Below, piece after piece: positions 4,538-22,935 of a stretch of 64,000 nucleotides of DNA. The position numbers and the translations under genes are program-made. Below the pieces are notes generated by a model. That model ran no database searches, had not been told where the DNA came from, and saw only the letters and a program-made list of their open reading frames with translations. The DNA is from Bacilli bacterium (GTDB lineage Bacteria; Bacillota_I; Bacilli_A; RF39; UBA660): positions 1,931 to 65,930 of the forward strand of contig JAFQID010000029.1 in assembly GCA_017397685.1 (NCBI GenBank). The letters are read 5' to 3'. The number at the start of each line of letters is the position of its first letter. The first letter of the stretch is position 1.

Positions 4538-4691
4538 TTCTTTATATTGGAGCTTTTGGTGGCACTTTCCGGCTTTTGACGGCACTTTATGGCTTCCGAG
4601 AGCACTCTACAGCACTCGGGAGCACTAGCTGAGGGTATCTAAAAAGGTATTTAATTTTCAAAAATTAGCCTTTTTCGAATATTTTTTGTAT
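4538..4691 (-). repeat. T1 element body, copy a
   Basis: Homologous to 8206-8368, 17127-17290 and 20667-20832. It contains the hairpin region GGCTTCCGAG...CTCGGGAG, tandem GGTATCTAAAAA/GGTATTTAATTT (4634-4657) and the tail AAAAATTAGCCTTTTTCGAATATTTTTTGTAT. Confidence 0.85.
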
Positions 4692-4701
4692 TCTTATTTT
4701 T

Positions 4702-6237
4702 TTACCTTTTTCTTATTTCATCTTTAATAAATTTGACGAATTCGTCAATTGATATTGAATAAGTTTCTTCACTGCCATATTTACGATAACTAATTAAATT
4801 ATTATCTCTTTCGTTATTACCTAAAATTAATGTGATAGGATTTTTCATTATATTACTTTGTCTTATCTTTTTCCCCATATTTTCTTTTGAGTTATCATAT
4901 TCTACTCTTATATCTTCACTTAATAATAAATCATAAATTTTCTTACAATACTCATCATGGTATTTAACATTAACTGGAATAATATTTACTTGTACTGGAG
5001 ATAACCATATTGGTAATACTCCTTTAAATTGTTCAAGTAATAGCATTATAAACCTTTCATAAGAACCAAGTACTGCTCTATGAACCATAACTGGAACTTG
5101 CTTTTCTCCGTTTTCATCTATGTAAGATAGTCCAAATCTTTTAGGCATCGCGAAGTCTAACTGCACTGTTGGTATTTGTATTTTTCTTCCTAATTCATCT
5201 TTAAACATAAAGTCAATCTTAGGTCCATAAAGTGCAGCTTCACCTTCGCATCTTTTTGCATTTAGTCCCAATTCTTCACAAATTTCTGCAAGCATATTTT
5301 CACAGATATCCCAATCTTCTTGACTACCAATATATTTTTCAGGATGTTCATAATCTCTTACTGATAATGATACCCAGAACACATCATATAATCCCATATT
5401 AGAATAGAAATCTTTTATTAAATTACATATATTCATTACTTCTTGTTTTACTTGTTCACGAGTACAGAATGAATGACCATCTTCAACAGTAATTGCATAT
5501 ACTCTTGACAATCCTCCTACTGCTCCCTGTAATTCTGCTCTATATTGTTTATCTGATTCCATGTATCTAATTGGCAAATCTCTATAACTACGAAGTTTAG
5601 ATGCATATATTTGAGTATGATGTGGGCATTGTACTGGTTTTAAAACATATTTATGTCCTTTAGGTGATTCTACTCTAAATAGTTCATCATTAAATTTCAT
5701 AGCATGACCTGAAGTTTCAAATAATGAAATGTCTGCTAAAGATGGACAACTTACTTTTTGAAAACCATATCTTCTACACACTCTTTCTATTTCTTTTTGT
5801 AATTCATCTTTTACAATAGTTCCTCTTGGAGTATATAAAGGCAATCCTGCACCTACATAATCAGAAAAACAAAATAAATCTAAATCTTTTCCAATCTTTC
5901 TGTGATCTCTTTCCTTTAATTCTTCTAGGAACTCTAAAAATTTATCAAGTTCTTCTTTGCTTTCAAATGCTCTTCCTGAAATTCTATCTATCATTTCATT
6001 ATTAGCATCACCATTATAATAAACTCCACTTATTCTAAGTATTTTAACAAAACAATTATTATCTAATTTATTAATTTCTTTTTCTAACGATTCAAAATCA
6101 TTTTCACTTATTTTTTCATCGATTTTAAATTCATAATAAAATTCTTCTTCATTAAATACTTTATTATCTAATTTAACATTTTTATATTTATCTTTTATTA
6201 TTTGTTCTAATAATACAACTGCTTTTTCATTTATCAT
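4702..6237 (-). CDS. thrS: Threonyl-tRNA synthetase, N-terminally short form (no TGS domain and most of the editing domain missing)
   Basis: Class II catalytic and anticodon-binding domains are present (RDHRKIGKDLDLF, HRAVLGSYERF). ATG at 6237 has RBS GAAGG; an in-frame GTG at 6291 is the alternative start. A Thr T-box lies upstream. Confidence 0.9.
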   Translation of the reverse strand: MINEKAVVLLEQIIKDKYKNVKLDNKVFNEEEFYYEFKIDEKISENDFESLEKEINKLDNNCFVKILRISGVYYNGDANNEMIDRISGRAFESKEELDKFLEFLEELKERDHRKIGKDLDLFCFSDYVGAGLPLYTPRGTIVKDELQKEIERVCRRYGFQKVSCPSLADISLFETSGHAMKFNDELFRVESPKGHKYVLKPVQCPHHTQIYASKLRSYRDLPIRYMESDKQYRAELQGAVGGLSRVYAITVEDGHSFCTREQVKQEVMNICNLIKDFYSNMGLYDVFWVSLSVRDYEHPEKYIGSQEDWDICENMLAEICEELGLNAKRCEGEAALYGPKIDFMFKDELGRKIQIPTVQLDFAMPKRFGLSYIDENGEKQVPVMVHRAVLGSYERFIMLLLEQFKGVLPIWLSPVQVNIIPVNVKYHDEYCKKIYDLLLSEDIRVEYDNSKENMGKKIRQSNIMKNPITLILGNNERDNNLISYRKYGSEETYSISIDEFVKFIKDEIRKR

Positions 6238-6291
6238 TTTCTTACCTTCTTTCTTATTATTTACTTTTTGATTGGGAGTATTTCGTATCAC

Positions 6292-6530
6292 TTTCCGTTT
6301 CCGTCATTAAAATCTCCTCCTTTAAAACAAAAAGAATAATACCGTTATAGGAGTCTATAAGACGGTACCATCCTTATTTTTACTTAATTTATATAACCGA
6401 TACCCTCGGGCAATCTCTTTCGAGTGCAACATAATAGGTAGTAATTATCAAGTTTATTATTATCTTCCACCAAACGATAACTCTCTATAAAATAAATTAT
6501 TAATAATCGTATCCTATATCTTAGTTTTTC
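6292..6530 (-). promoter_or_regulatory. T-box leader with a Thr (ACU) specifier
   Basis: Stem I AGAGAGUUAUCGUUUGGUG and an ACU-ACCU specifier context are present. The T-box core GGAUGGUACCGUC is at 6361-6373, with a terminator plus U-run. An extended -10 TGATATAAT lies at about 6538-6546. Confidence 0.8.
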
Positions 6531-6572
6531 TAATATTATTATATCATATTTTTTACTTTTAATTAATTAAAT

Positions 6573-6602
6573 TAAAAAGCCTATTACATTGATTGTAATA
6601 GA
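6573..6602 (-). terminator. Intrinsic terminator after the small peptide gene
   Basis: CTATTACA (6581-6588) pairs with TGTAATAG (6594-6601). A T-run follows on the minus strand. Confidence 0.6.
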
Positions 6603-6637
6603 CTCTTAATCCAAATATTATTCGTATAATATATTTA

Positions 6638-6721
6638 TTAAAGAATGCTAAAACAACCAATATTAACTATTGATTTAGTTGTTGTCGTAGTAGTTGTAGT
6701 TGCTAATTGATTGTTTAACAT
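6638..6721 (-). CDS. 27-aa peptide MLNNQLATTTTTTTTKSIVNIGCFSIL (AgrD-like C-terminus)
   Basis: RBS GGGAGAG lies 6 nt upstream of the ATG. TTGACA (6780-6775) is upstream and a terminator is downstream. The peptide ends in GCFSIL; the agrD at 27255 has GCFHLA. Confidence 0.45.
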   Translation of the reverse strand: MLNNQLATTTTTTTTKSIVNIGCFSIL

Positions 6722-6818
6722 ATTAATCTCTCCCTTTCAAAAAGTGATTATAGAATAACACAAAATAGCATTTTTGTCAAAATTAACATTCTAAATTTAT
6801 AAAAAACTATAAAAAACG

Positions 6819-6840
6819 GGTATCTAAAAGGTATCTAAAG
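6819..6840 (-). repeat. Iteron pair, GGTATC family
   Basis: GGTATCTAAAA GGTATCTAAAG, an 11-bp period, just 3' (minus sense) of secA-tail copy A2. Confidence 0.85.
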
Positions 6841-6881
6841 TGCATTTTTAGGGGTTAAAATACAAAAAAATTGTAGCAAAG

Positions 6882-6967
6882 AAAAATCTCGAAAACCCTT
6901 ATATTTCCTGGGCTTGCGAGGTTTATTTGCCGCAACATTGTTTATATTTTTTTCCACTGACACATGG
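6882..6967 (-). repeat. secA-tail copy A2 (45-mer at 6923-6967) with its terminator
   Basis: Encodes PCVSGKKYKQCCGK* with one Gly to Val change. A CTCG..CCC/GGG..CGAG hairpin and T-run follow. Confidence 0.85.
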
Positions 6968-7070
6968 TGTAAAATCTGCAATTTTTTTACAGTTTTTACA
7001 ATTTTTTTATTTAAATTACAAATAATTTATAAATTCTACAACTTATTTTTACTCTAAAATCTTCGCAGAA

Positions 7071-7106
7071 CGTATGTAAAAACGTATGTAAAAACTTATG
7101 TAAAAA
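7071..7106 (-). repeat. Iteron triplet, GTATGT family
   Basis: CGTATGTAAAAA CGTATGTAAAAA CTTATGTAAAAA, a 12-bp period. Confidence 0.9.
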
Positions 7107-7131
7107 TGAAATTATTAAAGGTTCAAATGAG

Positions 7132-7698
7132 CTATTTTTTTATATTAAAATCTCTTTTTGCACTTTTGAAGTTTTCAGCATGAAGTTTTGTAATATTCTT
7201 TATACATTCTTTTAGTTTTATTCCTTCTGGTGTAAGTTCAACACTATCATTATCTAAATCTAAAATTTTAGTTATTTTTAATCCTTGAGCACTCATGTGA
7301 AAAAGATCACCAAAATTCGAAAAATAACTTCCTAAACTACCATTTTGTAAAAATCTTTGTAATCCATCAAGTGTTGATTTATAATCATTGATTTTTTTAT
7401 CTAAGATCATTTTGCATCTAAGATCTTGAATATTATTCTCATCTAAATCAAATAAATTGTTTTCTCTGATAAACTCTAATTCAACTAAACTTAAATCAAA
7501 CAAACTTGTACTAAAACTTAAATCATACATTTCATAAAAATTAAATTCTTTATTTGGGATTGGCTCCATATCCATTTCTCTGCTAAGCGCACATACTTCA
7601 TCCCATTCTTTTTTTAATGATTCATATGTAAGAAACATCCTATTATTTACAACATCTTGAATCTTGTTTTTATCAATCACTGTATTTCTTATAAACAT
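7132..7698 (-). CDS. Hypothetical protein, 188 aa
   Basis: Long ORF with RBS GTGAGGA. I recognise no domain. Confidence 0.6.
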   Translation of the reverse strand: MFIRNTVIDKNKIQDVVNNRMFLTYESLKKEWDEVCALSREMDMEPIPNKEFNFYEMYDLSFSTSLFDLSLVELEFIRENNLFDLDENNIQDLRCKMILDKKINDYKSTLDGLQRFLQNGSLGSYFSNFGDLFHMSAQGLKITKILDLDNDSVELTPEGIKLKECIKNITKLHAENFKSAKRDFNIKK

Positions 7699-7721
7699 AA
7701 TTAATCCTCACTTAGTATTTT

Positions 7722-7985
7722 TTATCTATGCATACTATTAGATTCTTCTATTTCTTCACCTGCTAAAGTTTTTACTAAATTTAAATAATAAGCATAGTCT
7801 TCTGGTGTTAAAGTAGCAACATCTACTACCTTGTATCCATTTGCTTGTGCATAAGCTTGAACATTTTTATACTCATTTTGATATTTTTTTACTCTTTCAT
7901 CATTTGCTGCAAGAGTCTTTTGTTCAACAAATATTATTTTCTGATCATCATCTTGACCCCAATAAGAATAACAACTCATTTCCAT
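7722..7985 (-). CDS. Hypothetical protein, about 87 aa
   Basis: The track ORF starts at 8030, but a TATGATATAAT promoter lies inside that extension. RBS TTGGAG precedes the ATG at 7985 (MEMSCYSYWGQ...). Confidence 0.55.
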   Translation of the reverse strand: MEMSCYSYWGQDDDQKIIFVEQKTLAANDERVKKYQNEYKNVQAYAQANGYKVVDVATLTPEDYAYYLNLVKTLAGEEIEESNSMHR

Positions 7986-8066
7986 TATAATCACTCCAAT
8001 CATTTTTATTATATCATAAATATTCCTCATTTTTTCACTATTTACCTAAAATTACCCAAGAAAAAA

Positions 8067-8088
8067 CGTATGTAAAACGTATGTAGAA
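8067..8088 (-). repeat. Iteron pair, GTATGT family
   Basis: CGTATGTAAAA CGTATGTAGAA. The surrounding roughly 95 bp (8067-8160) is homologous to 19401-19500. Confidence 0.9.
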
Positions 8089-8116: not shown

Positions 8117-8205
8117 AAAAAAAAAACTCACGAGCCCTTATTTTATGGGGCTTTGCGAGGTTATTTACCACAGCATTGTTTATACTTGCGACCACTGCCA
8201 CATGG
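8117..8205 (-). repeat. secA-tail copy A3 (45-mer at 8161-8205) with its terminator
   Basis: Encodes PCGSGRKYKQCCGK*. The hairpin CTCACGAGCCC/GGGGCTTTGCGAG is followed by a 10-nt T-run on the minus strand. Confidence 0.9.
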
Positions 8206-8368
8206 TAAAAAGATTCCTAGTTTTTGATTGCACTTTCGGGCTTTTGAAGGCGTTTGGCAGCCCTTTTTTGCCCTTTTTGGCTTCCAAGAGCACTTGGGAA
8301 TCCTACCGGAAGGTATCTAAAAGGTATCTAAAATTCAAAAATTAGACTTTTTCAAATATTTTTTGTAT
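8206..8368 (-). repeat. T1 element body, copy b
   Basis: Hairpin GGCTTCCAAG-AGCA-CTTGGGAATCC lies at 8279-8303 and tandem GGTATCTAAAA x2 at 8312-8333. Homology with 9770-9836 continues up to the stop of the gene at 8457. Confidence 0.85.
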
Positions 8369-8456
8369 AAGTATTTTTGCATTCTATTTAATCACCGCAA
8401 TGTCTTAATACTCTGATTTAAACAATAAATTGTAATTTATAATAAGATATAACTAT

Positions 8457-9385: not shown

Positions 9386-9523
9386 ATATCTCAACTCCTT
9401 AACAACTTACTATTTGTCTCTCAGTTCTATTATACCATATTTCAAGGTATATTTTTTATTGTCTTATTAAACACAATATTACTAAATTTCGAACACAGAA
9501 CTAAAACGATTTTTAAACTCGAT

Positions 9524-9697
9524 TGCCAATGTCATTTTGGCAGTCGACAAAATTTAGCCTTTTTTTTATTAACCAAATCTTTGCAATCCTTTATAAATAA
9601 AGGAATTATGGCAATTTTTAGCAATACAAAATTTTTGTATTTTTGCTTCAAAAAAGGGTATCTAGATACCTTTTAAATACTCACCGGAAGGTATTTT
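9524..9697 (-). repeat. T2 element, copy a
   Basis: Contains TGCCAA..TTGGCA, CCTTTATAAATAAAGG, ATACAAAATTTTTGTAT and the perfect palindrome GGTATCTAGATACC (9657-9670). Homologous to 10624-10836, 21489-21660 and 22752-22935. Confidence 0.85.
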
Positions 9698-9788
9698 GGC
9701 TTCCGAGAGCACTCGGGAAACCTAGCAGAAGGTATCTAAAAAAGTATCTAAAATTTAAAAATTAGCATTTTTTGAATATTTTTTGTAT
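9698..9788 (-). repeat. T1 element, partial copy c without a secA tail
   Basis: Carries GGCTTCCGAGAGCACTCGGGAAACC, then GGTATCTAAAAAAGTATCTAAAA, then the tail AAAAATTAGCATTTTTTGAATATTTTTTGTAT. Confidence 0.85.
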
Positions 9789-10430: not shown

Positions 10431-10623
10431 AATCATCCCTTCTTTCAAATACAATCATATGATATTTAAAATCTATTCTCTACCAATTTTAACTGGAATA
10501 CTCGCCCGTTTTTATAACATTTAAGCTACATATCTATTTTACCATAGAAATTGCAGATTTTTCACATTTGCTATTTAATCGTAAGATTACTATATTACGA
10601 TTAAAGTATTAATACTTATTTTT

Positions 10624-10836
10624 TTAACTCAATCACCAATACCGTTTTGGCACTGAACACAATTTTATCTCTTTTTTTAAAACAAATCTCTGCAAAGCCT
10701 TATAAATAAAGGAAACACCGTATTTCTTCACCATACAAAATTTTTGTATTTTTACCCCATTTTTGGGTATTTAGATACCTTTTAGATACTCAGTGGAAGG
10801 TATCCAGAAAGGTATCAAAAGTATTTTGCAAAGTTT
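10624..10836 (-). repeat. T2 element, copy b
   Basis: Same module order as the other T2 copies, with the near-palindrome GGTATTTAGATACC at 10766-10779. It lies directly 3' (minus sense) of secA-tail copy A4, just as T2-d follows the real secA. Confidence 0.85.
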
Positions 10837-10845
10837 TTGAAAATT

Positions 10846-10919
10846 AAAAAACCCCTAATTTTATGGGGTTTTAGCTATTTACCACAACATTGTTTATATT
10901 TTTTACCACTGCCACATGT
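10846..10919 (-). repeat. secA-tail copy A4 (45-mer at 10875-10919) with its terminator
   Basis: Encodes TCGSGKKYKQCCGK with a TAG stop. The hairpin is CCCC-TAATTTTA-TGGGG plus a T-run. Confidence 0.85.
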
Positions 10920-10933
10920 TAATAACAATCTAG

Positions 10934-11028
10934 TATATATAGTATTATGCGATATATATAGTATTATACGTTTTCCTAGGTATTACAAGATCTGGGATGA
11001 TTTGGTATATATAGTACATATAGTATTA
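10934..11028 (-). repeat. Direct repeats TATATATAGTATTAT, three copies
   Basis: Copies lie at 10934-10948, 10953-10967 and (with a 9-nt insertion) 11005-11028. Confidence 0.8.
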
Positions 11029-11053
11029 TAAGTACTATGTGTTCACGAGCGTT

Positions 11054-11075
11054 TGCACACAAATTGCACACATTA
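11054..11075 (-). repeat. Iteron pair, TGCACACA family
   Basis: TGCACACAAAT TGCACACATTA. It matches the cluster at 14860-14905. Confidence 0.8.
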
Positions 11076-11142: not shown

Positions 11143-11757
11143 TTATGATAAAGATAATCTTTTTATACTTTGTTTTAAATAAGTATTTTTGTACCATTCA
11201 GCAAATAATTCAGTTGCAGATGTATGTCCATCATTTCTATTCTTTCTTTCTTCATCAGACATTTCAGCTAAAGTTTTATCACAATTATCTGGTACAAATA
11301 CATACCATAAGTTAGATTTTGCTCTTTTTATTGAATCTCCTCTTTTACTGTATGCTAATGTTCCACTACTTACTCCATAAAAAGTATAAAAATCATTACC
11401 ATCATAAAAAGTTAAACAATCAATAAATTTGCAGGTTCTATTAGTCTCATCCTTCATTGTTTCAAGTAATCCTTCTATATCTGAACTTATTCCACTTCTC
11501 TTAACAAATGCTCCAGGATATCCAGGATTATTTGGATAATTATCTATATAAAATCCTGTATCAGCTACAAAACAAGGTGTTTGTAAAATGTTATATGCAT
11601 CCAATGCTTTTTTTCTTGATATTTTTTCAATATCATTTATTTCAATTTCTTCAAAGTCATATTCATAAAAGTCTATACCTATATTTTTTTCTTCAAAATA
11701 TTCTTTAACTGAAACATATTTACCATAATTTCCAGTTACATAAATTATATTTTTCAT
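11143..11757 (-). CDS. Ham1/RdgB-like non-canonical NTP pyrophosphatase, divergent
   Basis: VTGNYGKYVSVKEYF, ADTGFYIDNYPNNPGYPGAFVKR and a KNRNDGHTSA tail resemble the ITPase motifs (TGNxxK, DDSGL..PG.YSAR, KN.ISHR). Confidence 0.55.
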   Translation of the reverse strand: MKNIIYVTGNYGKYVSVKEYFEEKNIGIDFYEYDFEEIEINDIEKISRKKALDAYNILQTPCFVADTGFYIDNYPNNPGYPGAFVKRSGISSDIEGLLETMKDETNRTCKFIDCLTFYDGNDFYTFYGVSSGTLAYSKRGDSIKRAKSNLWYVFVPDNCDKTLAEMSDEERKNRNDGHTSATELFAEWYKNTYLKQSIKRLSLS

Positions 11758-11758
11758 T

Positions 11759-12679
11759 TTACATCTCTCCTCTAAAATTATATAGTTTTTTTACTAGTTT
11801 TGGATTGTATTCTGGTTGAGTTAAATCAATACCTTTATCATCAGCAATTTTCTTAGATAAAAAGTACATTTGTAACATAAGATAATACTCTTTCCAAAAA
11901 TAGTCTTCTTTTATATTTTCTGTATCAAAAATAGATAGATTGGAATATTCTTTATTTATTAATTCAATTAATATATTATCTAGTTCTCTTCTTTGATGAC
12001 ATAAATAGATAACATGACTATCAGGATACTGAAATAACAAATTGCTTCTTCCATGACAATATGAACCTTTATCGTGCATAACTGGTGCTGCTAATCCAGT
12101 TTCAACTAAATTAGATTCTAAAACACCACTAGATGTTTTTGTTTCATAACCACTCATTATTTGAATTAAAGACACATCTTTGAAATTAACTGTTATTTTA
12201 TCTATTTTCTCTCTACTTCTATTTAGTAATTCTTTTATCTTATCATTTATTTTTTTTATTTCATCAGATGCTATTTCCGTATTTAATGAAGTAGTTGCAT
12301 CTAACATTAATGTTATTGGTCCAAAACTAGACGCTAATGAAATAAAACTCTTTTCTATTTGATATTTTTCATTACCCCAAGAAACAACTTGATAACCTAC
12401 TTCTTGATTATTTTGAGTAATTAAAAATTTAGTACCATTAAAATCATCCAACACATCTTTAATACCATTTGTATTTCCACTTGTAGAAATTGCTATTAAA
12501 TTTGAAAATTTATTTCTATTAGTCTTATAAAAATAATCTCTTGGTTCTATCACTTCACAAATAATTCCATCGATTCCTAATCTTTCTATAATTAATTGTA
12601 AATAATATGCAACGACTTTTGATCCTCCTGTTGCAATTATTAATGTTGGATTTTTATCAATTGTTAATTGATATAACAT
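11759..12679 (-). CDS. SIS-domain-like protein; the 5' end probably extends to about 12787 with a non-ATG start
   Basis: IATGGSKVVAYYL and IAISTSGNTNG resemble the SIS motifs. The frame stays open upstream to RBS AAGGAGG (12798-12804), with ATA/ATT codons 7-13 nt after it. Confidence 0.45.
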   Translation of the reverse strand: MLYQLTIDKNPTLIIATGGSKVVAYYLQLIIERLGIDGIICEVIEPRDYFYKTNRNKFSNLIAISTSGNTNGIKDVLDDFNGTKFLITQNNQEVGYQVVSWGNEKYQIEKSFISLASSFGPITLMLDATTSLNTEIASDEIKKINDKIKELLNRSREKIDKITVNFKDVSLIQIMSGYETKTSSGVLESNLVETGLAAPVMHDKGSYCHGRSNLLFQYPDSHVIYLCHQRRELDNILIELINKEYSNLSIFDTENIKEDYFWKEYYLMLQMYFLSKKIADDKGIDLTQPEYNPKLVKKLYNFRGEM

Positions 12680-12843
12680 TTTTCTAATATCATTAGCTTT
12701 ATTTAATAATGGATCATTTATACTTAATATTCTTTTTTCTAATTTTGAAAAATTTATTTCTGATGGTTCTGTATGTGTATGTTTAATTATTATAAAACCT
12801 CCTTCTTAATTAAATCTTAACAAAGAAAGAGGTAATATATATG

Positions 12844-13326
12844 TCAGTTATAAAAATTTTCTAATATTTCTATTGATTTTATTCTATTTATATAAAAATG
12901 TCTTATTTCATCTTTTAGTTCACAATAAGCTGCTACTCCCCATTCATTACCCAAAAGAATTAAATCATAAGGATGAATAGTTCTACTTGTAAGTTTTTCT
13001 TCATTTTTAGAATAATACTCTATTAAACATTTTCTTTTTTCTTTAATCGCCCTATTTATTAGATTAAATAAATTTTTATCTTTTACATTTATTTCATTTG
13101 GTGTAATAAACCTTTTTGGAACACTTACATTTTGATTTAAAACATATCCACCATAAGGTCCTTTGATAGTATCTATATAAATACCTGCCTTTTCTATTTC
13201 ATCTTTATATACTCTAATCATCCTAGGAGTAACTTCTAATTTTTCAGACAATTCAGCAATACTATATTTTCTTCCTGTACTTAAATACTCAATCATAGTA
13301 AGTACATTACTAATTTTAGACATCAT
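12844..13326 (-). CDS. Short HTH-WYL transcriptional regulator
   Basis: The N-terminal winged HTH reads YSIAELSEKLEVTPRMIRVYKDEIEKAG. The C-terminal WYL-like domain reads RTIHPYDLILLGNEWGVAAYCELKDEIRHFYINRI. Confidence 0.7.
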   Translation of the reverse strand: MMSKISNVLTMIEYLSTGRKYSIAELSEKLEVTPRMIRVYKDEIEKAGIYIDTIKGPYGGYVLNQNVSVPKRFITPNEINVKDKNLFNLINRAIKEKRKCLIEYYSKNEEKLTSRTIHPYDLILLGNEWGVAAYCELKDEIRHFYINRIKSIEILENFYN

Positions 13327-13409
13327 ATCACCACCAATGTATCAATCTTATATCATATATATTTATACTAATTATATTACTAAAATCTATTATTTATAAT
13401 ATCATTCAA

Positions 13410-14705
13410 TTATCTATTTTTCGTTCCCATCATTGCATATAAAATTTTTTCAATATCAGATGATGAAGTCTCTCCTTTTATTAAACCAGTATCAGCGCTT
13501 GAGAACAATAATGCCAGTATTTTATTATTTACTTCTTCATCAGTTAAATTGCCATTATTTATTAAAGATAGATAGAAATAAGTTAATGCATACTTTTGTT
13601 TATATTCAGTTTCTAAATGTTTAGATGACATTAAAAGCTTTACAAAAATTCTCAAGAAATATAATGCAATTGAAATTATAGAAATAATTATAAATCCAGC
13701 TGGAATATTAATATTATTATTAAATATAGTAATTTCTAAAATTGTTTTATCTCCAAATTCAATTTTAGGACTTATGATTAGATACAATAAAATAATTATA
13801 AATATAACTATACCGCCTACTATAAAGCTATATTTTTTTACTTCTGCCTTATATTTATTAGCCTCGTTTTGCATATGTTCTGCCGGTTTAATAACTTTTA
13901 ATTTTTCCTCATATGTTTTTTCTATGTTTTGTAATCTTCTTTCAGCATCTTCTTCAAAACTATCAAATCTAACTTTAGCATCATTGCTAAAGTTACTATA
14001 ATCAGTTCTTACTTTTTCAAACCAATCCCTTTCTGCTTTTTTTACTTCTGACATATATTCTATGTATTCTTGTTTTTCATTTTCAATAGCAGTTATTGCT
14101 GTTGAATAAGCATTATTTATTTTGTCTATCTCTGTTTTAGATACTGATTTTCTAGTTAATGATTTATAATCATTTTCTCCAATCCTAAATCCCAAATAAG
14201 AAAATGCAACTTCACGTTCAATTTCATCACTACTGTTTATAGTTGATGTCAAATTAGAATTACTAGTTAATAAATTTATATAAATTTCTATACCTCTAAT
14301 ATCATATTTATCATATATATATTTTAATACTGTAAAAGATTTATATGACTTATTTTCATTTAAGCTATCTATAAAAATAAAATTTAATTTTTTACTATTA
14401 TTATAATCTAATCCTAGTTTATTTCGAATATTACTTTCAATATTTCTTTTTAAAGTATCTTCATCTTCTAATTCCATTAGTGAAGTAATCCAAGATTCTA
14501 TTTTTGTTATTTCAGCATTTATATAATTAGCATATGGTTCTATTTTATCTTTATATAATAATAAATTACTTTTAAAAAATGTTTTTAATTCAGTTAGATT
14601 ATTAAACTTTTTTGTTTTATTCAATTTATCTTTCAATATAATATTATTTTTTAAAATATGATTACTTATATTATTTTCAATATCAATCTTCTTCATTTCA
14701 ATCAA
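13410..14705 (-). CDS. Coiled-coil protein with two C-terminal TM helices, unknown function
   Basis: 431 aa. The N-terminal 290 aa are Lys/Glu-rich and helical. TM segments are FIVGGIVIFIIILLYLII and AGFIIISIISIALYFL. The start is TTG at 14705 or ATG at 14696. Confidence 0.6.
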   Translation of the reverse strand: MIEMKKIDIENNISNHILKNNIILKDKLNKTKKFNNLTELKTFFKSNLLLYKDKIEPYANYINAEITKIESWITSLMELEDEDTLKRNIESNIRNKLGLDYNNSKKLNFIFIDSLNENKSYKSFTVLKYIYDKYDIRGIEIYINLLTSNSNLTSTINSSDEIEREVAFSYLGFRIGENDYKSLTRKSVSKTEIDKINNAYSTAITAIENEKQEYIEYMSEVKKAERDWFEKVRTDYSNFSNDAKVRFDSFEEDAERRLQNIEKTYEEKLKVIKPAEHMQNEANKYKAEVKKYSFIVGGIVIFIIILLYLIISPKIEFGDKTILEITIFNNNINIPAGFIIISIISIALYFLRIFVKLLMSSKHLETEYKQKYALTYFYLSLINNGNLTDEEVNNKILALLFSSADTGLIKGETSSSDIEKILYAMMGTKNR

Positions 14706-14859
14706 AACTCCCTGCTTATTTTAAATTCGCTCAATTAATACTGATTATTATATCATAAAATAAAAACATTTCATATATAATACAAAAAAATATGTACTAA
14801 TGCTGACTTTTCTTTGTTTACATAACTAAAATCCTTTGTTTATAAGGGTAAATATAAAA

Positions 14860-14905
14860 TGTGTGCATAAATTTTTATATCATGCACACATTTTGCACAC
14901 AAATT
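14860..14905 (-). repeat. TGCACACA-family inverted and direct repeats
   Basis: TGTGTGCAT (14860-14868) and ATGCACACA (14882-14890) form an inverted repeat. The tandem TGCACACATTTT GCACACAAATT lies at 14883-14905. Confidence 0.8.
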
Positions 14906-14954: not shown

Positions 14955-15034
14955 AAAATCTCGCAAGCCCTTATTTTATGGACTTTCAGCTATTTACCAC
15001 AACATTGTTTGTATTTCTTGCCGGACCCACATGG
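14955..15034 (-). repeat. secA-tail copy A5 (45-mer at 14990-15034) with a degenerate terminator
   Basis: CCATGTGGGTCCGGCAAGAAATACAAACAATGTTGTGGTAAATAG encodes PCGSGKKYKQCCGK*. Ser is recoded AGT to TCC. An in-frame stop lies 13 codons upstream and there is no start. Confidence 0.9.
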
Positions 15035-15140: not shown

Positions 15141-15162
15141 CTTATCTAAAAACTTATCTAAT
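15141..15162 (-). repeat. Iteron pair, TTATCT family
   Basis: CTTATCTAAAAA CTTATCTAAT. It overlaps the pepF stop codon. Confidence 0.85.
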
Positions 15163-16842: not shown

Positions 16843-16954
16843 TAATACCACCTTCTTTATTATTATATCATATACCTGACCAGAACTATGCTGGGAATGG
16901 TCAATTTTCTATTTTTCTTTTATTTATAGGTATTTCAGAGTACTTATTAAATTT

Positions 16955-17003
16955 CTAGATAAGTTTTAGATAAGCAAAAAAACTATCTAAAGCTTATTTA
17001 AAC
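16955..17003 (-). repeat. TTATCT-family iterons (two inverted, two direct)
   Basis: TAGATAAGTTT TAGATAAGC is followed by ACTATCTAAAG CTTATTTAAAC. Confidence 0.75.
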
Positions 17004-17037: not shown

Positions 17038-17126
17038 CAAAAAAATCCTCGTAAAGCCTTTATTTACGGGGATTTTCTATATTATTTACCACAACATTGT
17101 TTATACTTTTTACCACTGCCACATGG
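17038..17126 (-). repeat. secA-tail copy A6 (45-mer at 17082-17126) with its terminator
   Basis: Encodes PCGSGKKYKQCCGK*. The hairpin is CCTCGTAAA/TTTACGGGG plus a T-run. Confidence 0.9.
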
Positions 17127-17290
17127 TAAAAAGATTCCTAGCTTTTGGTAGCACTTTATAGCTTTTGAGAGCGTTTGGCAGCCCTTTTTCGCCCTTTTTG
17201 GCTTCCGAGAGCATTCGGGAATCCTAGCTAAGGGTATCTAAAAAGGTATCTAATTTTCAAAAATTACCATTTTTCAAATATTTTTTGTAT
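17127..17290 (-). repeat. T1 element body, copy d
   Basis: Close to copy b. The hairpin lies at 17200-17224 and the tandem GGTATCTAAAAA GGTATCTAATTT at 17233-17256. Confidence 0.85.
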
Positions 17291-18442: not shown

Positions 18443-18605
18443 AAAGTCATCTCCTAATAAATATTATATCATAATTTTTTTGCTTATATTTAATGAAAAA
18501 TAAATCATTTAATATCTGTGTTCTATGTCTATACAATTTTTTTGCCGAAATTACAAAGAATTTATATTTTATACAACTAAAATTTGAACAATAAATTTCA
18601 CAAAA

Positions 18606-18629
18606 CGTATGTTAAAACGTATATAAAAA
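18606..18629 (-). repeat. Iteron pair, GTATGT family
   Basis: CGTATGTTAAAA CGTATATAAAAA. Confidence 0.75.
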
Positions 18630-18663
18630 GCATTAATTATAGTTAGATAAATTGTAATTTGTA

Positions 18664-18882
18664 TTACTTATTCAAATAATATTTGTTGTCTTTTGTCTTT
18701 ACTAAAATCTTTTGTTTTTGTAATTTATCATTTATTCTTACAAATCTATCAGGTTTTCCAACACCAACTTCTTCTAATGTTTTTGCAGTTTCTTCACTAA
18801 TAGCACCACATAAATATAATTTTTTGATTATTAAATTTCTTCTTAATAAATATATATTTAACATAATTTTCAATTTTTCCAT
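18664..18882 (-). CDS. Hypothetical protein, 72 aa
   Basis: ORF directly downstream of the XRE gene. The motif ATAAATTGTAATTT follows its stop. Confidence 0.45.
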   Translation of the reverse strand: MEKLKIMLNIYLLRRNLIIKKLYLCGAISEETAKTLEEVGVGKPDRFVRINDKLQKQKILVKTKDNKYYLNK

Positions 18883-19400: not shown

Positions 19401-19422
19401 CGTATGTAAAACGTATGTAGAA
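19401..19422 (-). repeat. Iteron pair, GTATGT family
   Basis: CGTATGTAAAA CGTATGTAGAA, identical to 8067-8088. Confidence 0.9.
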
Positions 19423-19457: not shown

Positions 19458-19545
19458 AATAAAAACCCCGGAAACCATTATATTTCTTGGGTTTGTGAGG
19501 CTATTTACCACAGCACTGTTTATACTTGCGACCGCTGCCACATGG
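19458..19545 (-). repeat. secA-tail copy A7 (45-mer at 19501-19545) with its terminator
   Basis: CCATGTGGCAGCGGTCGCAAGTATAAACAGTGCTGTGGTAAATAG encodes PCGSGRKYKQCCGK*. Confidence 0.9.
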
Positions 19546-19602
19546 CAACCTATTAAAACAACCAGGTAATTTTTTGTTTGAAAATTGGGCTTTCTTACTC
19601 AT
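19501..19602 (-). CDS. 33-aa SEC-C-motif micro-ORF, the only secA-tail copy with an in-frame ATG
   Basis: MSKKAQFSNKKLPGCFNRLPCGSGRKYKQCCGK. There is no obvious Shine-Dalgarno sequence, so expression is uncertain. Confidence 0.3.
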   Translation of the reverse strand: MSKKAQFSNKKLPGCFNRLPCGSGRKYKQCCGK

Positions 19603-19672
19603 AAGTTTTAATAACTTACACTTAAAAAATTGCAATAAAGTGATGTCTAATTTTCTAACAATGCGGTTTAAA

Positions 19673-19696
19673 CTTATCTAATAACTTATCTTAAAA
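19673..19696 (-). repeat. Iteron pair, TTATCT family
   Basis: CTTATCTAATAA CTTATCTTAAAA. Confidence 0.85.
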
Positions 19697-19735
19697 AATT
19701 GATTTGTTAATAATATAATATAGAAACTATAATTG

Positions 19736-20416
19736 CTAGAATTTTTTGACTAATTTTCTTTCAAATGATGTAACAGGGTATCCGTCTACTTTTGCACCTA
19801 AAAGTATTGTTATTTCTTTACCATTTTTATGTTTAACAAAGTTTTCAATATCTTCATCTACTAAATATATTAATTCAAATGGTAAACCATTTTGTCTAGA
19901 AATAATCTCTCTTGTTTTATCACTCAAACTATAACCATCTACATTTTCTCTTTTTTTACCAAGTACTATTAATGTATCAATTTCAGCATCATCAAAATAT
20001 GTTCCACTTTGAAATTTTTCTATTTCCTCTTCTTTATTAATGAAAGCCCATTGTAAAGTTAATAGTCCTTCATCGTCATCTTTAGTAGTATAAAAAACTG
20101 TTGGTTCGCCATATTCTTCACTTAATATTGAATAGAAATCACTTAAGGCAGCCATTTTTTCACCAAGTGAACTACCACAATGATTAGACCCCACACCTAT
20201 TCTTAAAAACTCATTTTCAGAAAATTTAAAATAAAATGGCAAACAGCATCCATTAAACATATATTCCCCATTATTTCTTCTGTATGAGGATAAATATTTA
20301 CCACTTGGAATTTCTATATACGTAGAACCATAAAAATCAATTTTATCTCCTAATTTCTTCTTTAGCTTACTTGCTAACAAATTGCAATCTTCCGCTTTTG
20401 AATATAACTCACTCAT
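19736..20416 (-). CDS. Hypothetical protein, 226 aa
   Basis: Long ORF with RBS AGGAGG and an upstream TGATATAAT promoter. I recognise no domain. Confidence 0.6.
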   Translation of the reverse strand: MSELYSKAEDCNLLASKLKKKLGDKIDFYGSTYIEIPSGKYLSSYRRNNGEYMFNGCCLPFYFKFSENEFLRIGVGSNHCGSSLGEKMAALSDFYSILSEEYGEPTVFYTTKDDDEGLLTLQWAFINKEEEIEKFQSGTYFDDAEIDTLIVLGKKRENVDGYSLSDKTREIISRQNGLPFELIYLVDEDIENFVKHKNGKEITILLGAKVDGYPVTSFERKLVKKF

Positions 20417-20520
20417 TTATAAAACCTCCTGATCTGAATATATTATATCATATTTTTTAATTGTTCAGGTATTCAATTTGTTTTACCATCATTATTATAG
20501 AGTCAAAATCAATAAAAAAA

Positions 20521-20542
20521 CTTATCTAAAACTTATCTAAAC
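20521..20542 (-). repeat. Iteron pair, TTATCT family
   Basis: CTTATCTAAAA CTTATCTAAAC. Confidence 0.9.
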
Positions 20543-20581
20543 GACTTTTTTGAGGTATAATTACCTAAAAATTGTAATCAT

Positions 20582-20666
20582 CAAAAAGCCCGCAATCCCT
20601 TTATTTATGCGGGCTTACAGGCTTATTTTCCACAACATTGCTTATATTTCTTTCCACTGCCACATG
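20582..20666 (-). repeat. secA-tail copy A8 (45-mer at 20622-20666) with its terminator
   Basis: CCATGTGGCAGTGGAAAGAAATATAAGCAATGTTGTGGAAAATAA encodes PCGSGKKYKQCCGK*. The hairpin is GCCCGCA/TGCGGGC. An in-frame TAA lies 2 codons upstream of the 45-mer. Confidence 0.9.
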
Positions 20667-20832
20667 GATTTTAGTTTTCGGGTTTTTAACAGCATTTTCG
20701 GGCTTTTGGGGGGCTTCTAGGATCCCTTTTTTGCCCTTTTTGGCTTCCGGCAACACTCGGGAAGCCTAGCAGAGAGTATCTAAAAAGGTATCTAAAATTT
20801 AAAAATTAGCCTTTTTCGAATATTTTTTGTAT
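20667..20832 (-). repeat. T1 element body, copy e
   Basis: The hairpin GGCTTCCGGCAACACTCGGGAAGCC lies at 20742-20766 and AGTATCTAAAAA GGTATCTAAAAT at 20775-20798, followed by the standard tail. Confidence 0.85.
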
Positions 20833-20862
20833 TTCAATTTTTTACATAATAAATTATTTATT

Positions 20863-21381
20863 TTATCTTCTTAATGATTTAACATATTCTTGATGTCTAA
20901 CTTCTTCTGGCTTTTCCAACCACCAATTGTTGTAGTCATTATTAATACCTTTTTCAAACAATTCTCTATTAGAATTTAGAAATGCCATCCAATCCTTATT
21001 AAATTCAATACACCACCAAAAATCAGTTCTTAATTTTTTAAAACCTGTATCCTTTGTTGATGAGGTTGGTATTTTTTCTAACTCTGAATATTCTTTTAAA
21101 TGATATGGGGTATTTATAAATGAAGCTAATCCCTCTAATATTTCATTTGATAATTCTTGATTTGAAAATAATATTAACTCATTATTTTCCTTTGTATATA
21201 TTCCCGTAGAAGTATATACATAACTATCAAAGTCATGCATAATTCTTCTGAAAGATCTTGGAATAGCACCAAATTCAAATTCAGCTGAACCCATATAATC
21301 TAAATCTACTACTCCATCTCTTCCAGTTAAACCGTTTCCATCTTTATTAAACTTTCCTCTTTGTATTAAATAGAACTTCAT
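20863..21381 (-). CDS. Hypothetical protein, 172 aa
   Basis: Long ORF with no recognised domain. Confidence 0.6.
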   Translation of the reverse strand: MKFYLIQRGKFNKDGNGLTGRDGVVDLDYMGSAEFEFGAIPRSFRRIMHDFDSYVYTSTGIYTKENNELILFSNQELSNEILEGLASFINTPYHLKEYSELEKIPTSSTKDTGFKKLRTDFWWCIEFNKDWMAFLNSNRELFEKGINNDYNNWWLEKPEEVRHQEYVKSLRR

Positions 21382-21488
21382 TAATTATCATCCCTTTGTG
21401 ATTATTTATTATAGCATAATTACTCATAAAAACAATAATTTAACCTAATAATTATCGTACTTCTTTATATTTATTATTTTATCATTCT

Positions 21489-21660
21489 AAACTCGTTTAC
21501 CATTGTCATTTTGGCAATGGACACAATTTCTTCTTTTTTCTTAATTAAATTTTTGCAAATCCTTATAAATAAAGGAAATATCGTGATTTATATCAATACA
21601 AAAATTTTGTATTTTAAGCCCATTTTGGGGTATCTAGATACCTTTTAGATACTCAGCGGA
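21489..21660 (-). repeat. T2 element, copy c
   Basis: The palindrome GGTATCTAGATACC lies at 21629-21642 and TAGATACT at 21646-21653. Confidence 0.85.
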
Positions 21661-21719
21661 AGGTATGTAAAAAGGTATCTAATTTTCAAAAATAAGCCTT
21701 TTTCGAACATTTTTTGTAT
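21661..21719 (-). repeat. T1 tail fragment, copy f
   Basis: GGTATGTAAAAA GGTATCTAATTT is followed by AAAAATAAGCCTTTTTCGAACATTTTTTGTAT. Confidence 0.8.
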
Positions 21720-21752
21720 TGCTTTTTTAACACATTTTTTATTAATTAAAAA

Positions 21753-22667
21753 TTATATTTTTAACTTCTTACAATTATTTTTAGAAGAATACTTTATCCT
21801 TTGATATAAATCACTTTTTAATTCTTCTGGTAACATAGGCATATTTGCCAATTCTGTCATAAAATTAGTCTTTGAGTAATTATCTAAAGGTTGATTTTCA
21901 AATTCCATACTCCAATCAAAAGCAAAATAATTATCTTCTTTTTCAAATTCATTTCCAGGATAATCTAATATAATTGCACTATATTGTCCACCAAAACTGC
22001 TTTCTCCGATTATTGTCGAACATGAAAATCTATTAAGATCTTCTTCTTTTGTTTCATAATCAATTGGAAGTAATTTATAACCACTTTCCCAATTAACACC
22101 AGTTAATATGTATCTATCTAGATTATAATATTTTTCTAATGCCTCTAATACAGCAGCATTATTCAAATTATTATTTTTTACATAAGTTAGTATCTTCCAC
22201 ACAGTAAATGTTGGAATCTTTTTTAACCACTGATTTTTTTGTCTTCTTTCTTCTAATCTTTCTATGGATTCTTGAAAGACTTCAAGAAATATTGGATTAC
22301 TTTTTAATGATTCAATATGTTTATATAAAACAGTATTTTCCATATTTTCATCTGTAAATAAAAATTCTTCATACGCATCAACTATATCATTACATACCTT
22401 TGCAAAAAGATAAGGTTTTTCTTGATGCATATTTTTTTTGCAATCACTTGATAATTGCGTTAATAATGACAACATTTCATCATCATTTGTAATTTTTAAT
22501 TTTTGCTTTTTTATTTTTTTAATTAACTCTTTATTTGATTTCAATTGTTTTTTATAATATTCTTTTTCAATCCCATCACCAATACACAAAGCTAATATTA
22601 AATCTCTATTTTCATAAATATATAAATATCTTTTTATTAATTCATCTTGAACTAAGTTAATTTCCAT
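21753..22667 (-). CDS. Hypothetical protein, 304 aa
   Basis: Long ORF with no recognised domain. It is the first gene after secA. Confidence 0.6.
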   Translation of the reverse strand: MEINLVQDELIKRYLYIYENRDLILALCIGDGIEKEYYKKQLKSNKELIKKIKKQKLKITNDDEMLSLLTQLSSDCKKNMHQEKPYLFAKVCNDIVDAYEEFLFTDENMENTVLYKHIESLKSNPIFLEVFQESIERLEERRQKNQWLKKIPTFTVWKILTYVKNNNLNNAAVLEALEKYYNLDRYILTGVNWESGYKLLPIDYETKEEDLNRFSCSTIIGESSFGGQYSAIILDYPGNEFEKEDNYFAFDWSMEFENQPLDNYSKTNFMTELANMPMLPEELKSDLYQRIKYSSKNNCKKLKI

Positions 22668-22751
22668 AAAACACTCCTATCAATTATTATATCACAAAAT
22701 TAGCAATTTTTATAAATAAAATACTAGAGTTTAAATATTAATGTTTTATGT

Positions 22752-22935
22752 CTATTTGGCAGTGGACACAATTTAATCTTTTTTTATTAGATAAATCTTC
22801 GCAATTCCTTATAATTAAAGGAAATATCGTTATTTTAAGCAATACAATTTTTTTGTATTTTTGCTTCAAAAAAAGGTATCTAGATACCTTTTAAATACTC
22901 ATCGGAAGGTATCTAAAAAAGTATTTAAATTATTT
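22752..22935 (-). repeat. T2 element, copy d, directly downstream of the real secA
   Basis: The palindrome GGTATCTAGATACC lies at 22875-22888, followed by GGTATCTAAAAAAGTATTTAAA. Confidence 0.85.

Follow-up and report, generated by a model that had tools for sequence, protein, structure and literature searches.

The closest described counterparts of the repeats considered here are the P and P' sites of phage lambda and the DR2 repeats of Tn916, which are likewise direct repeats of 9-11 bp set about one helical turn apart. Such arm sites flank the core at distances of tens to about 100 bp, adjoin the integrase gene, are specific to the integrase lineage and become divided between attL and attR when the element integrates, and the present repeats resemble them in each of these respects. 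At the level of whole elements, tandem accretion of CIMEs is described for streptococcal ICE/IME families in PMC5704250 (citing Pavlovic 2004 and Bellanger 2011). Here an array of gene islets at the end of secA is analysed within a 64-kb window, the whole stretch of DNA under study. The iterons that flank the islets are most likely phage-type integrase arm sites, as predicted from their sequence and setting, and the region would comprise about eleven integrase-less, att-flanked cassettes accreted at the secA end.

Word counts were taken over both strands of the 64-kb window, with expectations from a first-order Markov model. The word GGTATCTAA was observed 12 times (0.60 expected), CGTATGTAA 4 times (0.23), CTTATCTAA 6 times (2.18), TGCACACA 5 times (0.74) and TGTATGATAC 5 times (0.15). 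The four secA-array words have 27 copies, every one of them within 4634-22930, a span that makes up 28.6% of the window (P about 2e-15). The original prediction had listed coordinates for these iterons, and the word given for each is present at every one; it had also held that the two ends of an islet carry the same family, which is so for seven of the eight tail-bounded islets (permutation P = 0.0024). Its five families are real as words, but GGTATCTAAAA, CGTATGTAAAA and CTTATCTAAAA are variants of a single motif, NKTATSTAAAA, of which related genomes hold many further variants. The GGTATC repeats, too, are real, yet merely the core of far longer conserved end modules of 60-250 nt.

The secA gene is an open reading frame at 22982-25486 on the minus strand, and SecA Pfam domains were found on the conspecific locus L111. 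Nine copies of its tail (T0-T8, all minus strand) bound eight islets, at positions 22989 (T0), 20630 (T1), 19508 (T2), 17089 (T3), 14997 (T4), 10882 (T5), 8168 (T6), 6930 (T7) and 4500 (T8). T0 (22982-23026), the last 45 nt and the true end of secA, is supplied by the adjoining islet. T1 (20623-20667; PCGSGKKYKQCCGK-stop) has its own terminator on its left; T2 (19501-19545) shares a K to R variant with T6 (8161-8205), these two being the tails of the GTATGT family. T4 (14990-15034) has eight synonymous changes that leave the protein unaltered, T7 (6923-6967) has a single G to V change, and T3 (17082-17126) and T5 (10875-10919) complete the internal series. T8 (4493-4537) marks the distal end of the array and, under a displacement model, would predate the other tails; the original secA terminator would then lie at about 4440-4492. 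Of the nucleotide differences among the tails, 45 fall in synonymous codons and 8 in non-synonymous ones, and the tail variant goes with the iteron family on its terminator side, as at T2 and T6. Among conspecific strains, the last 36 nt of secA vary with the neighbouring element while the upstream secA sequence is the same. Evidently, to judge from these comparisons of sequence, each element brings in a replacement secA tail and terminator.

The anatomy of the islets can be read directly from the window; arm and iteron coordinates are given on the plus strand. The distal arm of I8 (4538-4700, 'type A') begins with a G-rich linker carrying 10-bp phased T-tracts (4538-4633), followed by the iteron pair GGTATCTAAAAAGGTATTTAA (4634-4656) and a conserved block of about 45 nt with GAATATTTTTTGTATTC; the same module recurs at the far end of the prophage at L005. 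Its proximal arm (6819-6922, 'type C') has an iteron pair (6819-6840), the palindrome AATACAAAAAAATTGTA (6859-6879) and a terminator hairpin, a layout that matches the integrase-proximal arm of the prophage at L009, and between the arms lie a Thr8 peptide, a T-box-like leader and a thrS paralogue (4702-6721, minus strand). I7 has CGTATGTAAAAA three times distally (7071-7106), CGTATGTAAAA twice proximally (8067-8087) and minus-strand cargo at 7132-8030. In I5 the distal arm (10920-11075) is a TAGTATTAT-rich linker plus TGCACACAAATTGCACACA (11054-11075), and a similar linker with a TGTAGACAA pair is found in L064 and L076; the proximal iterons (14860-14905) are two copies of TGCACACA (14883-14905) and one inverted copy (14860-14867), and the cargo encodes an AbiZ-like protein, a WYL regulator, a 306-aa protein and Ham1. 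I2, with a 226-aa protein as cargo, has CTTATCTAATAACTTATCTTAA distally (19673-19694) and CTTATCTAAAA twice proximally (20521-20542), the latter arm also adjoining integrase genes in L012, L059 and L063.

Several islets are more elaborate. I6 and I1 each hold two cassettes fused at a tail-less junction, and their clusters at 9657, 10766, 21629 and 22875 each consist of a palindrome, GGTATCTAGATACC, and an inverted arm copy (the B module). In I6, which has a distal arm of linker and GGTATCTAAAA twice (8206-8333, iterons 8312-8333), the junction (9510-9752) is made up of a B module (9510-9684), a truncated copy, 35 nt of linker and a direct pair (9731-9752), and the proximal end (10620-10821) of a B module (10620-10793), a 7-nt spacer and a short direct pair, GGTATCCAGAAAGGTATCAAAAG (10799-10821). 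I1, whose cargo is a 304-aa protein, has a distal arm of linker and AGTATCTAAAAAGGTATCTAAAA (20668-20797, iterons 20775-20797); 7-nt spacers separate B module and direct pair both at its junction (21485-21684; B module 21485-21656, pair 21662-21684) and at its proximal end (22735-22981; B module 22735-22902, pair 22908-22930), which closes with a terminator. I4, with an M3 peptidase as cargo, shows that the original statement of direct orientation throughout is wrong: CTTATCTAAAA occurs twice distally (15141-15162), and at the proximal end (16953-17003) an inverted TTATCT pair (16953-16975) is followed, after a spacer, by a degenerate direct pair (16983-17003). The B module is present in many islets, with differing cargo; it has no role in the standard arm-site model. 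I3, the PRTase/flavoprotein block already singled out as an exception to matched ends, is indeed one, and is composite. The distal arm of its PRTase/flavoprotein cassette (17127-17254) is a linker with GGTATCTAAAA twice (17233-17254); of the deleted proximal side there remains a piece of tail, TGCTTATATTT (18481-18495), which a GTATGT-type linker follows. The XRE cassette follows, with degenerate distal iterons, CGTATGTTAAAACGTATATAAAA (18606-18629), and CGTATGTAAAA twice proximally (19401-19421). XRE regulators encoded in the islets had been put forward as binders of the repeats, which is unlikely because most repeat-carrying islets encode no regulator.

A comparable islet lies at the end of rpsI (45440-46565, minus strand), where the rpsI end and terminator are present twice as a direct repeat of about 88 bp, once within 45440-45535 and once within 46478-46565. 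The iteron family originally described for this locus is confirmed: two iterons at 45571-45592 and four at 46409-46452, all TGTATGATAC, enclose one gene (45650-46282), which encodes 210 aa. This site is empty in the conspecific L106, holds other cargo in L102, L104 and L110, and has differing cargo between the same arms in L101, L104, L105 and L110. The rpsI end is a second hotspot, which we read as the target of a sister integrase lineage.

The association of the words with integrase genes is observed directly in related contigs, where they come after the stop codon of a tyrosine integrase gene and before a copy of the secA tail. In the viral contig IMGVR_UViG_3300028833_003330 the order outward from secA (L009) is tail, terminator, GGTATCTAAAAGGTATCTAAAG, 35 nt and an integrase of 376 aa (PF00589, E = 1.3e-24) with an S24 repressor next to it; at the other end (L005) it is GGTATCTAAAAAGGTATCTAAAA, linker and displaced tail. 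These loci are the ends of one 40-kb prophage with words at both, and the arrangement is that of attL/attR arm-type sites. In L012 and L080, CTTATCTAAAA occurs twice between the secA tail and a 387-aa integrase that is 51% identical to that of L009, and the GGTATC arm of the neighbouring element comes next. By integrase lineage, the loci carry GGTATCT (L074, L076, L083), CGTATCT (L060, L061, L077, L078, L079), CTTATCT (L059, L063, L064, L072, L080, L081), TGGATCT (L062, L065) and AGTATCT (L082); the arm of L075 is not visible because that locus ends at the integrase stop codon. The iteron word tracks the integrase lineage. An exact tandem pair with a period of 10-13 bp, within the 220 nt that follow the integrase stop codon, was found for 32 of 70 related metagenomic integrases (46%) and was absent by this criterion in the other 38, versus 5.7% of control windows. 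Two small elements, L131 (5.6 kb) and L062 (8.5 kb), keep the integrase and repeat a single word, directly oriented, at either end. The integrase itself gives weak matches to Arm-DNA-bind_4 (residues 16-57, E = 0.0055, below the Pfam threshold) and SAM_3, and its best solved relative is the Tn1549 integrase; integron family models scored far under their cut-offs on it. For three of the five window families (CGTATGTAAAA, TGCACACA and TGTATGATAC) no integrase was found, nor was a contig with the GGTATC family in attP form, and residue-level covariation between integrase N-terminus and word was not demonstrable with few lineages. Adjacency to integrases, presence at the far prophage end and lineage tracking all favour element-specific recombinase arm-type sites among the options first proposed.

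Since the iterons are most likely integrase sites, the region would be a stack of integrase-less cassettes inserted repeatedly at the secA end. The iterons would serve as arm-type sites to which tyrosine integrases of the lambda/Tn916 style bind with their N-terminal domain. Such integrases would be encoded in temperate phages, and in integrative elements related to them, whose target is the final ~40 nt of secA. The putative circular attP would run from the int-side iteron pair through terminator and replacement secA tail to a predicted crossover region, CCATGTGG(CAG), a linker of ~100 nt whose 10-bp phased T-tracts probably bend the DNA, and the second iteron pair. Each integrated element would be bracketed by its own word because integration separates the arms and leaves one at each end. 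The tail of the incoming element would become the new secA end, displacing the earlier tail downstream, so that successive integrations would have built the array; tail-less junctions would stem from deletions between directly repeated arms. Present-day cassettes would be excisable and re-insertable only by a cognate integrase acting in trans, the iteron word picking the integrase.

Recurrence of a whole islet was seen directly. The 304-aa islet is colinear in tail, arms and cargo with L203 and L204 (83% mean column identity), where its neighbours differ from those in the window; the islets act as units, and this integrase-less islet has both arms in three genomes in all. For one cargo gene the closest homologues lie in contexts without att sites, and cargo therefore moves by other routes too.

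It is possible, though considerably less probable, that the repeats are arm sites and the islets nonetheless dead scars of decayed prophages or integrative elements, their matched pairs mere history. The window lacks an integrase or remnant of one (tblastn, best E = 0.06); arms are damaged, with the PRTase proximal arm deleted, the iterons at 18606, 19673 and 16983 degenerate and T7 altered from G to V; tail-less junctions and the fusions in L204 and L207 indicate that deletions still happen; and the array is identical in several samples. However, not one integrase or phage gene fragment is left, no cargo protein of the window matched phage families, and eleven independent clean deletions, each sparing both arms, would be needed, which is unlikely. 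Seven of the eight displaced tails, moreover, are still coding apart from conservative changes, their differences being mostly synonymous; the integrase-less islet with both arms occurs beside different neighbours in three genomes; and the rpsI site is polymorphic for presence and cargo within a single species.

Other assignments concern the protein that binds the repeats. Binding by an excisionase (a directionality factor) or by a bending protein of the host, instead of by the N-terminal domain of the integrase, is improbable: short direct repeats within att arms are recognised by Xis-type proteins too, and the arm-binding domain of the integrase is a sub-threshold match, but the repeats occupy both arms, whereas Xis sites are typically confined to one (lambda, P22, Tn916). 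In many lineages, moreover, the repeats are found 0-95 nt from the stop codon of the integrase, they change with the lineage, and the one-sided phased linker repeats are the better candidate for an accessory factor or static bend. Tandem direct repeats at one-turn spacing in an AT-rich region might suggest plasmid-like or satellite elements whose iterons serve a replication origin or partition, but Rep, Par and primase genes are absent from every islet, Rep and Par genes from the whole window, the plasmid collection gave no match except a SEC-C gene, and the repeats are split to both element ends at a constant distance from the tail core; this option, part of the original prediction, is very unlikely. 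Least probable of all are transposase-binding terminal repeats of small transposons, also among the options first raised. Inverted copies do occur in the clusters at 9657, 10766, 16953, 21629 and 22875; against this, the window has no transposase and no target-site duplications, the matched outer pairs are direct apart from the inverted copies described above, every insertion hits a single sequence, the end of secA or of rpsI, and the enzyme associated with related elements is a tyrosine integrase.

Taken as integrase arm sites, the repeats differ from those of lambda and Tn916 in that one core, the secA tail, is common to many lineages while the arm words differ, and in that the int-distal arm lies past a phased T-tract linker of ~100 nt. 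Like integron gene cassettes, the islets are small, recombinase-less cargo units inserted in one orientation at a fixed site; unlike them, they come with a promoter of their own and lack both attC hairpins and an adjoining IntI/attI/Pc platform. Staphylococcal SCC composite islands at rlmH (orfX) likewise form tandem arrays at a conserved gene 3' end, with each unit bounded by a target-end repeat and some units recombinase-less (pseudo-SCC), but SCC uses large serine recombinases (Ccr) and simple sites with no arm-type repeats. In Prochlorococcus tycheposons and tRNA-flanked arrays (bioRxiv 10.1101/2020.12.28.424599), as proposed here, new integrations at the same site displace older elements inward, only partial target copies lie between neighbouring elements, and niche and defence genes are carried; tycheposons, however, target tRNA genes and have their own integrases, whereas the present units are integrase-less and target protein-coding 3' ends. 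By analogy, the cassettes can be read as att-flanked cargo units in the CIME sense: as in the streptococcal ICE/IME accretion treated in PMC5704250, attL and attR would be kept and recombination and transfer genes are absent. They differ from CIMEs in that the partners seen are temperate phages rather than ICEs, in the unusual length of the array (about eleven units of 1-4 kb), in having no decayed backbone and in the dedicated design of their ends, many units having the B module there around varying cargo.

Repeated copies of the end of secA divide the DNA behind this gene into eight tail-bounded islets (I1-I8). secA is an ORF on the minus strand (22982..25486) of a window with a G+C content of about 25%, and the final 38 nt of the gene (plus strand, CCACAACATTG...CCACATGG) are found eight more times in the window, as the displaced tails T1-T8 (20630, 19508, 17089, 14997, 10882, 8168, 6930 and 4500), T0 being the real end of the gene. 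The array genes all run in the same direction as secA, no recombinase, transposase or replication protein was detected among them with Pfam, and the distal limit of the array is a T-box leader followed by serS.

Short tandem repeats, or iterons, stand at the islet ends, and the original prediction held that each islet is bracketed by a matched pair drawn from five word families. At every coordinate that it gave, the word in question was present. Compared with a first-order Markov expectation for both strands of the window, GGTATCTAA occurs 12 times (0.60 expected), CGTATGTAA four times (0.23), TGCACACA five times (0.74) and TGTATGATAC five times (0.15); when the 64-kb window was scanned, 27 of 27 copies of the four secA-array words fell within the array. 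The same arm family is found at both ends of seven of the eight tail-bounded islets (permutation P = 0.0024), and the one unmatched islet, the PRTase/flavoprotein block, is composite, as had been foreseen. Other parts of the prediction required correction. Not all pairs are direct, the pair at 16953 being inverted, and the clusters at 9657, 10766, 21629 and 22875 consist of a palindrome and an inverted copy rather than a simple direct pair, which lies further downstream. Three of the five supposedly separate families are only 1-2 bases apart, within NKTATSTAAAA.

All nine tails encode (P/T)C(G/V)SG(K/R)KYKQCCGK*, and relative to T0 they carry 45 nucleotide differences in synonymous codons and 8 in non-synonymous ones. 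The terminator hairpin is different for every tail, and the tail variant follows the family on the terminator side (T2 and T6 are both in GTATGT islets); related GGTATC phages keep the same tail across different hosts. Among conspecific strains (the exact SecA protein has no database record; contigs were found via the hpf-like, rpsI and serS proteins), secA is the same just upstream of the tail, and its last 36 nt vary with the adjacent element. As judged from these sequences, the element supplies its own secA end. The invariant portion of every tail is CCATGTGGCAG, and strand exchange would take place at or just 5' of it. At several junctions the tail forms an inverted repeat, TTTTTACCA-TGTGGCAG-TGGTAAAAA, with the end of the linker (the segment between displaced tail and distal iterons), and this repeat would provide core-type half-sites. 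GGTATC-family linkers contain T-tracts phased at 10 bp (TRF: 4552-4626, 8260-8278, 17181-17199), which would bend the DNA and might so bring the distal arm to the core.

The same words lie beside integrase genes in loci from related genomes, viral contigs and metagenomes (L-numbers). In viral contigs the GGTATC pair was matched 16 times, five times with an adjoining secA tail. At one end of a 40-kb viral contig (L009) the secA 3' end is followed by a terminator, by GGTATCTAAAAGGTATCTAAAG and, 35 nt further on, by the stop codon of a convergent gene. This gene encodes a tyrosine integrase of 376 aa (PF00589, E = 1.3e-24), and an S24 repressor comes after it; the arm is colinear with the window arm 6819-6967. 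The opposite end of this contig (L005) combines GGTATCTAAAAAGGTATCTAAAA and the same block of ~45 nt with a G-rich linker and a displaced tail; the window has this module at 4634, 8312, 17233 and 20775. The integrase in L012 is another one (51% identical), and after it come CTTATCTAAAACTTATCTAAAA, terminator and tail, with the distal arm of a GGTATC element next, a junction of the same kind as T1. An integrase gene adjoins the repeat cluster in L009, L012, L059-L066, L074-L083 and L124-L202; tblastn of the window with 16 integrases found none there (best E = 0.06). Both ends match also in the prophage L009/L005 and in L131 (5.6 kb) and L062 (8.5 kb), small integrase-bearing elements with the same word at both ends in direct orientation. 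Those relatives that carry an integrase resemble prophages (S24 repressor, ~40 kb), and no ICE or IME relatives were seen among the related elements. Viral scans for CGTATGTAAAA, TGCACACA and TGTATGATAC pairs gave only matches with no secA tail nearby, those to TGTATGATAC being coding sequence of a 47% GC phage, and no integrase was found for these three families; an attP-shaped pattern of the GGTATC family had zero matches among viral contigs.

Scans with integrase alignments covered genome, viral and metagenome collections. The word is constant inside an integrase clade and different between clades (GGTATCT, CGTATCT, CTTATCT, TGGATCT and AGTATCT by lineage), with TGGGTAGGTA, TGTATAGGTA, TGGGTACCTA and others in more distant relatives; no residue-level covariation of integrase and word could be made out in the few lineages compared. 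An exact tandem pair with a period of 10-13 lies within 220 nt past the integrase stop codon in 32 of 70 metagenomic relatives, as against 5.7% of arbitrary windows from the same loci. The integrase N-terminus has a conserved motif, MPxYKSxxPTKDGRxWFF, and a weak match to Arm-DNA-bind_4 (E = 0.0055, 16.7 bits vs a 22.3-bit cut-off). Its closest relative with a solved structure is the Tn1549 integrase, and the nearest integrases of cultured phages (phi3626, phiMMP02) are only ~30% identical, so that no characterised attP was usable. Related integrases appear to share one core site and to use different arm words, a series that would be useful for study of the evolution of arm specificity and possibly as orthogonal recombination tools.

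The window islets are flanked by attL and attR and contain no integration or transfer genes. As expected of a block that travels together with both iteron clusters, the 304-aa islet next to secA recurs, arms included, in two other genomes among different neighbours. One copy (L203, 87% protein identity) sits between a CBASS islet and a 487-aa islet, and another (L204, 65% identity) comes third in the row of units behind secA. All three copies align in the same order through tail, terminator, arms, promoter, cargo and distal arm, at 83% mean column identity. The window-type secA array is unchanged in other samples, and other strains of the species have TGGATCT elements at secA in its place. In two conspecific strains (L112 13090-13300, L119 4470-4680) the sequence after secA is shared from the TGGATCT arm through promoter and 5' leader as far as the ribosome-binding site, past which the cargo differs; this suggests exchange of cargo within a constant arm. 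The 226-aa cargo gene offers no test of mobility, since its closest homologues (89-92% identical) lie in islands without iterons or tails.

The cargo of islet I8 (4702-6721, minus strand) comprises a peptide of 27 aa with a run of eight threonines (MLNNQLATTTTTTTTKSIVNIGCFSIL), a T-box-like leader at 55.8 bits (under the gathering score) and a paralogue of threonyl-tRNA synthetase from which ~125 N-terminal residues are missing. The impression is of a mobile spare ThrRS that senses threonine and may serve for resistance or as a backup. Islet I5 (11143-14705, minus strand) encodes an AbiZ-like protein (PADLOC, E = 7e-34), a WYL regulator, an NTP pyrophosphatase of the Ham1 family and a 306-aa unknown protein, and probably acts against phages as a module. 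CBASS and NERD genes occur in related arrays, and the islet cargo proteins had zero matches to PHROG families. Just upstream of the first gene in most islets, a candidate extended -10 promoter, TGnTATAAT (ATTATATCA on the plus strand), was read by eye (for example at 6535-6550, 8005-8020, 14745-14760, 16862-16875, 20435-20450 and 22685-22700); if real, such promoters would make the cassettes independent of read-through from secA. Several islets and loci share a short motif, ACAAATTACAATTTAT(T/C), close to the distal arm and directly behind the stop codon of the cargo gene (window ~18643-18670 and ~8418-8445; L102 ~8312; L104 ~8015; L119 ~5440).

Just beyond serS, at the array's distal end, are a reverse transcriptase (247..1446, minus), an RT-5 RNA motif just upstream of it (1472-1577, minus) and an adjoining nucleotidyltransferase (1949..2713, minus). 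The reverse transcriptase resembles group II, Drt3a and retron enzymes, with scores under every cut-off, and may be a defence RT. Upstream of secA lies an agr-type quorum-sensing locus (AgrB, histidine kinase, LytTR regulator) with SpoIID (26647-29450 region; L111 6632-9429), consistent with a spore-forming low-GC Firmicute host. Elsewhere in the window is a full-length OLE (ornate large extremophilic) RNA (57092-57575, plus strand; 223.6 bits vs a gathering score of 50).

In many integrase-less ('U-type') islets ~170 nt extra, the B module, separate the proximal iteron pair from the promoter of the cargo. It is present in the GGTATC islets of the window (22735-22902, 21485-21656, 10620-10793, 9510-9684), in I4 of the TTATCT family and at L012 285, L203 2662 and L204 6770. 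The module is the integrase-proximal arm copied inverted, decayed tail included (69% mean column identity), and its landmarks are 99-101 nt apart in a constant geometry. Because RNAalifold found no compensatory pairs in seven B modules, a structured RNA or attC-like fold is unsupported. Neither an Rfam search of the entire window at the gathering threshold nor one of the array by E-value assigned a family to the conserved end modules; two T-box-like leaders alone appeared, both under the gathering score. At 9657 and 21629 the tail-less junctions have the appearance of deletions between direct iteron pairs flanking a tail. Further deletion junctions that made use of these repeats are found at L204 8085-8110, where the AAATGACATTG part of the following B module directly adjoins a linker ending TTTTTACCA, and at L207 1560-1746, where, between two GATACC repeats, the iterons of a B module have dropped out. 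On the reading of these junctions, the arms are evidently substrates of secondary recombination.

The 3' end of rpsI (window 43800-46565; L101-L110) is a second hotspot, with the same cassette design as at secA. The site is empty in the conspecific L106, and the window's own rpsI islet is present in L101, L107 and L108. In L104, L105 and L110 the word GTATCATAC is kept and the cargo is different; this word stands at both ends in L101, L108 and L110, and the distal arm is missing in L104 and L105. An ABC-transporter islet with CAGCATACA at both ends occupies the site in L102, L103 and L109. Within one species, then, the rpsI site is empty or holds a 210-aa, acetyltransferase, AMP-binding or ABC-transporter islet. 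Similar blocks precede the genes further downstream, for a 161-aa protein, an HTH protein and an ADP-ribosylglycohydrolase, and these may be cassettes of older date.

Several other origins for the paired repeats were weighed. Local tandem duplication, named in the original prediction as one alternative that would undo it, is rejected: unrelated genes lie between the pairs, and many synonymous sites vary from tail to tail. Integron cassettes would also place accessory genes in a row; here the end modules have no covarying hairpin, no integrase lies beside the array, and integron-integrase models gave a related integrase 57 bits vs a cut-off of 265. Plasmid or phage replication iterons are tandem words as well, and the islet ORFs hold zero Rep or Par domains; the plasmid collection had nothing similar except a SEC-C gene. 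As to transposon terminal repeats, the outer pairs are direct, the insertion site is fixed and a transposase is absent.

A tentative reading, which we consider rather doubtful, is that the integrase-less islets are not debris and form a dedicated class of cargo cassettes, putatively mobile, that parasitise phage integrases. Each islet would then carry a full set of att arms, the iteron word serving as an address label for one integrase lineage, together with its own promoter and a replacement end for the essential target gene; U-type islets would add the conserved inverted arm module. Without a resident recombinase, low-GC gut Firmicutes could in this way use secA and rpsI, much like integrons, as places to build and swap accessory and defence genes. 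The broader interpretation of the iterons as integrase arm sites explains how a series of unrelated accessory genes, among them an abortive-infection gene of AbiZ type and an additional threonyl-tRNA synthetase, ended up downstream of an essential gene in an uncultured Firmicute of the gut. It also yields a rule, that the word should predict which islet a given phage integrase can move. If mobilised in trans, the cassettes would be a phage-dependent counterpart of integron cassettes.

With integrase binding putative, the mechanism read from these arms is the attP arm organisation of lambda/Tn916-type integrases. A search of the literature with the phrase 'end of secA' found no description of the secA 3' end as an integration hotspot. 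The accretion model of streptococcal ICE/IME/CIME tandems fits the secA array (PMC5704250), and the window islets share the definition of CIMEs, which are flanked by attL and attR and lack genes for integration and transfer. The secA array further resembles the tRNA-flanked arrays of tycheposons. Unlike both the ICE/IME/CIME tandems and the tycheposons, however, the secA array has secA as its target and phages as its partners, and it differs from them in the number and cleanliness of its integrase-less units, in the variety of arm words around a common core and in its B module.
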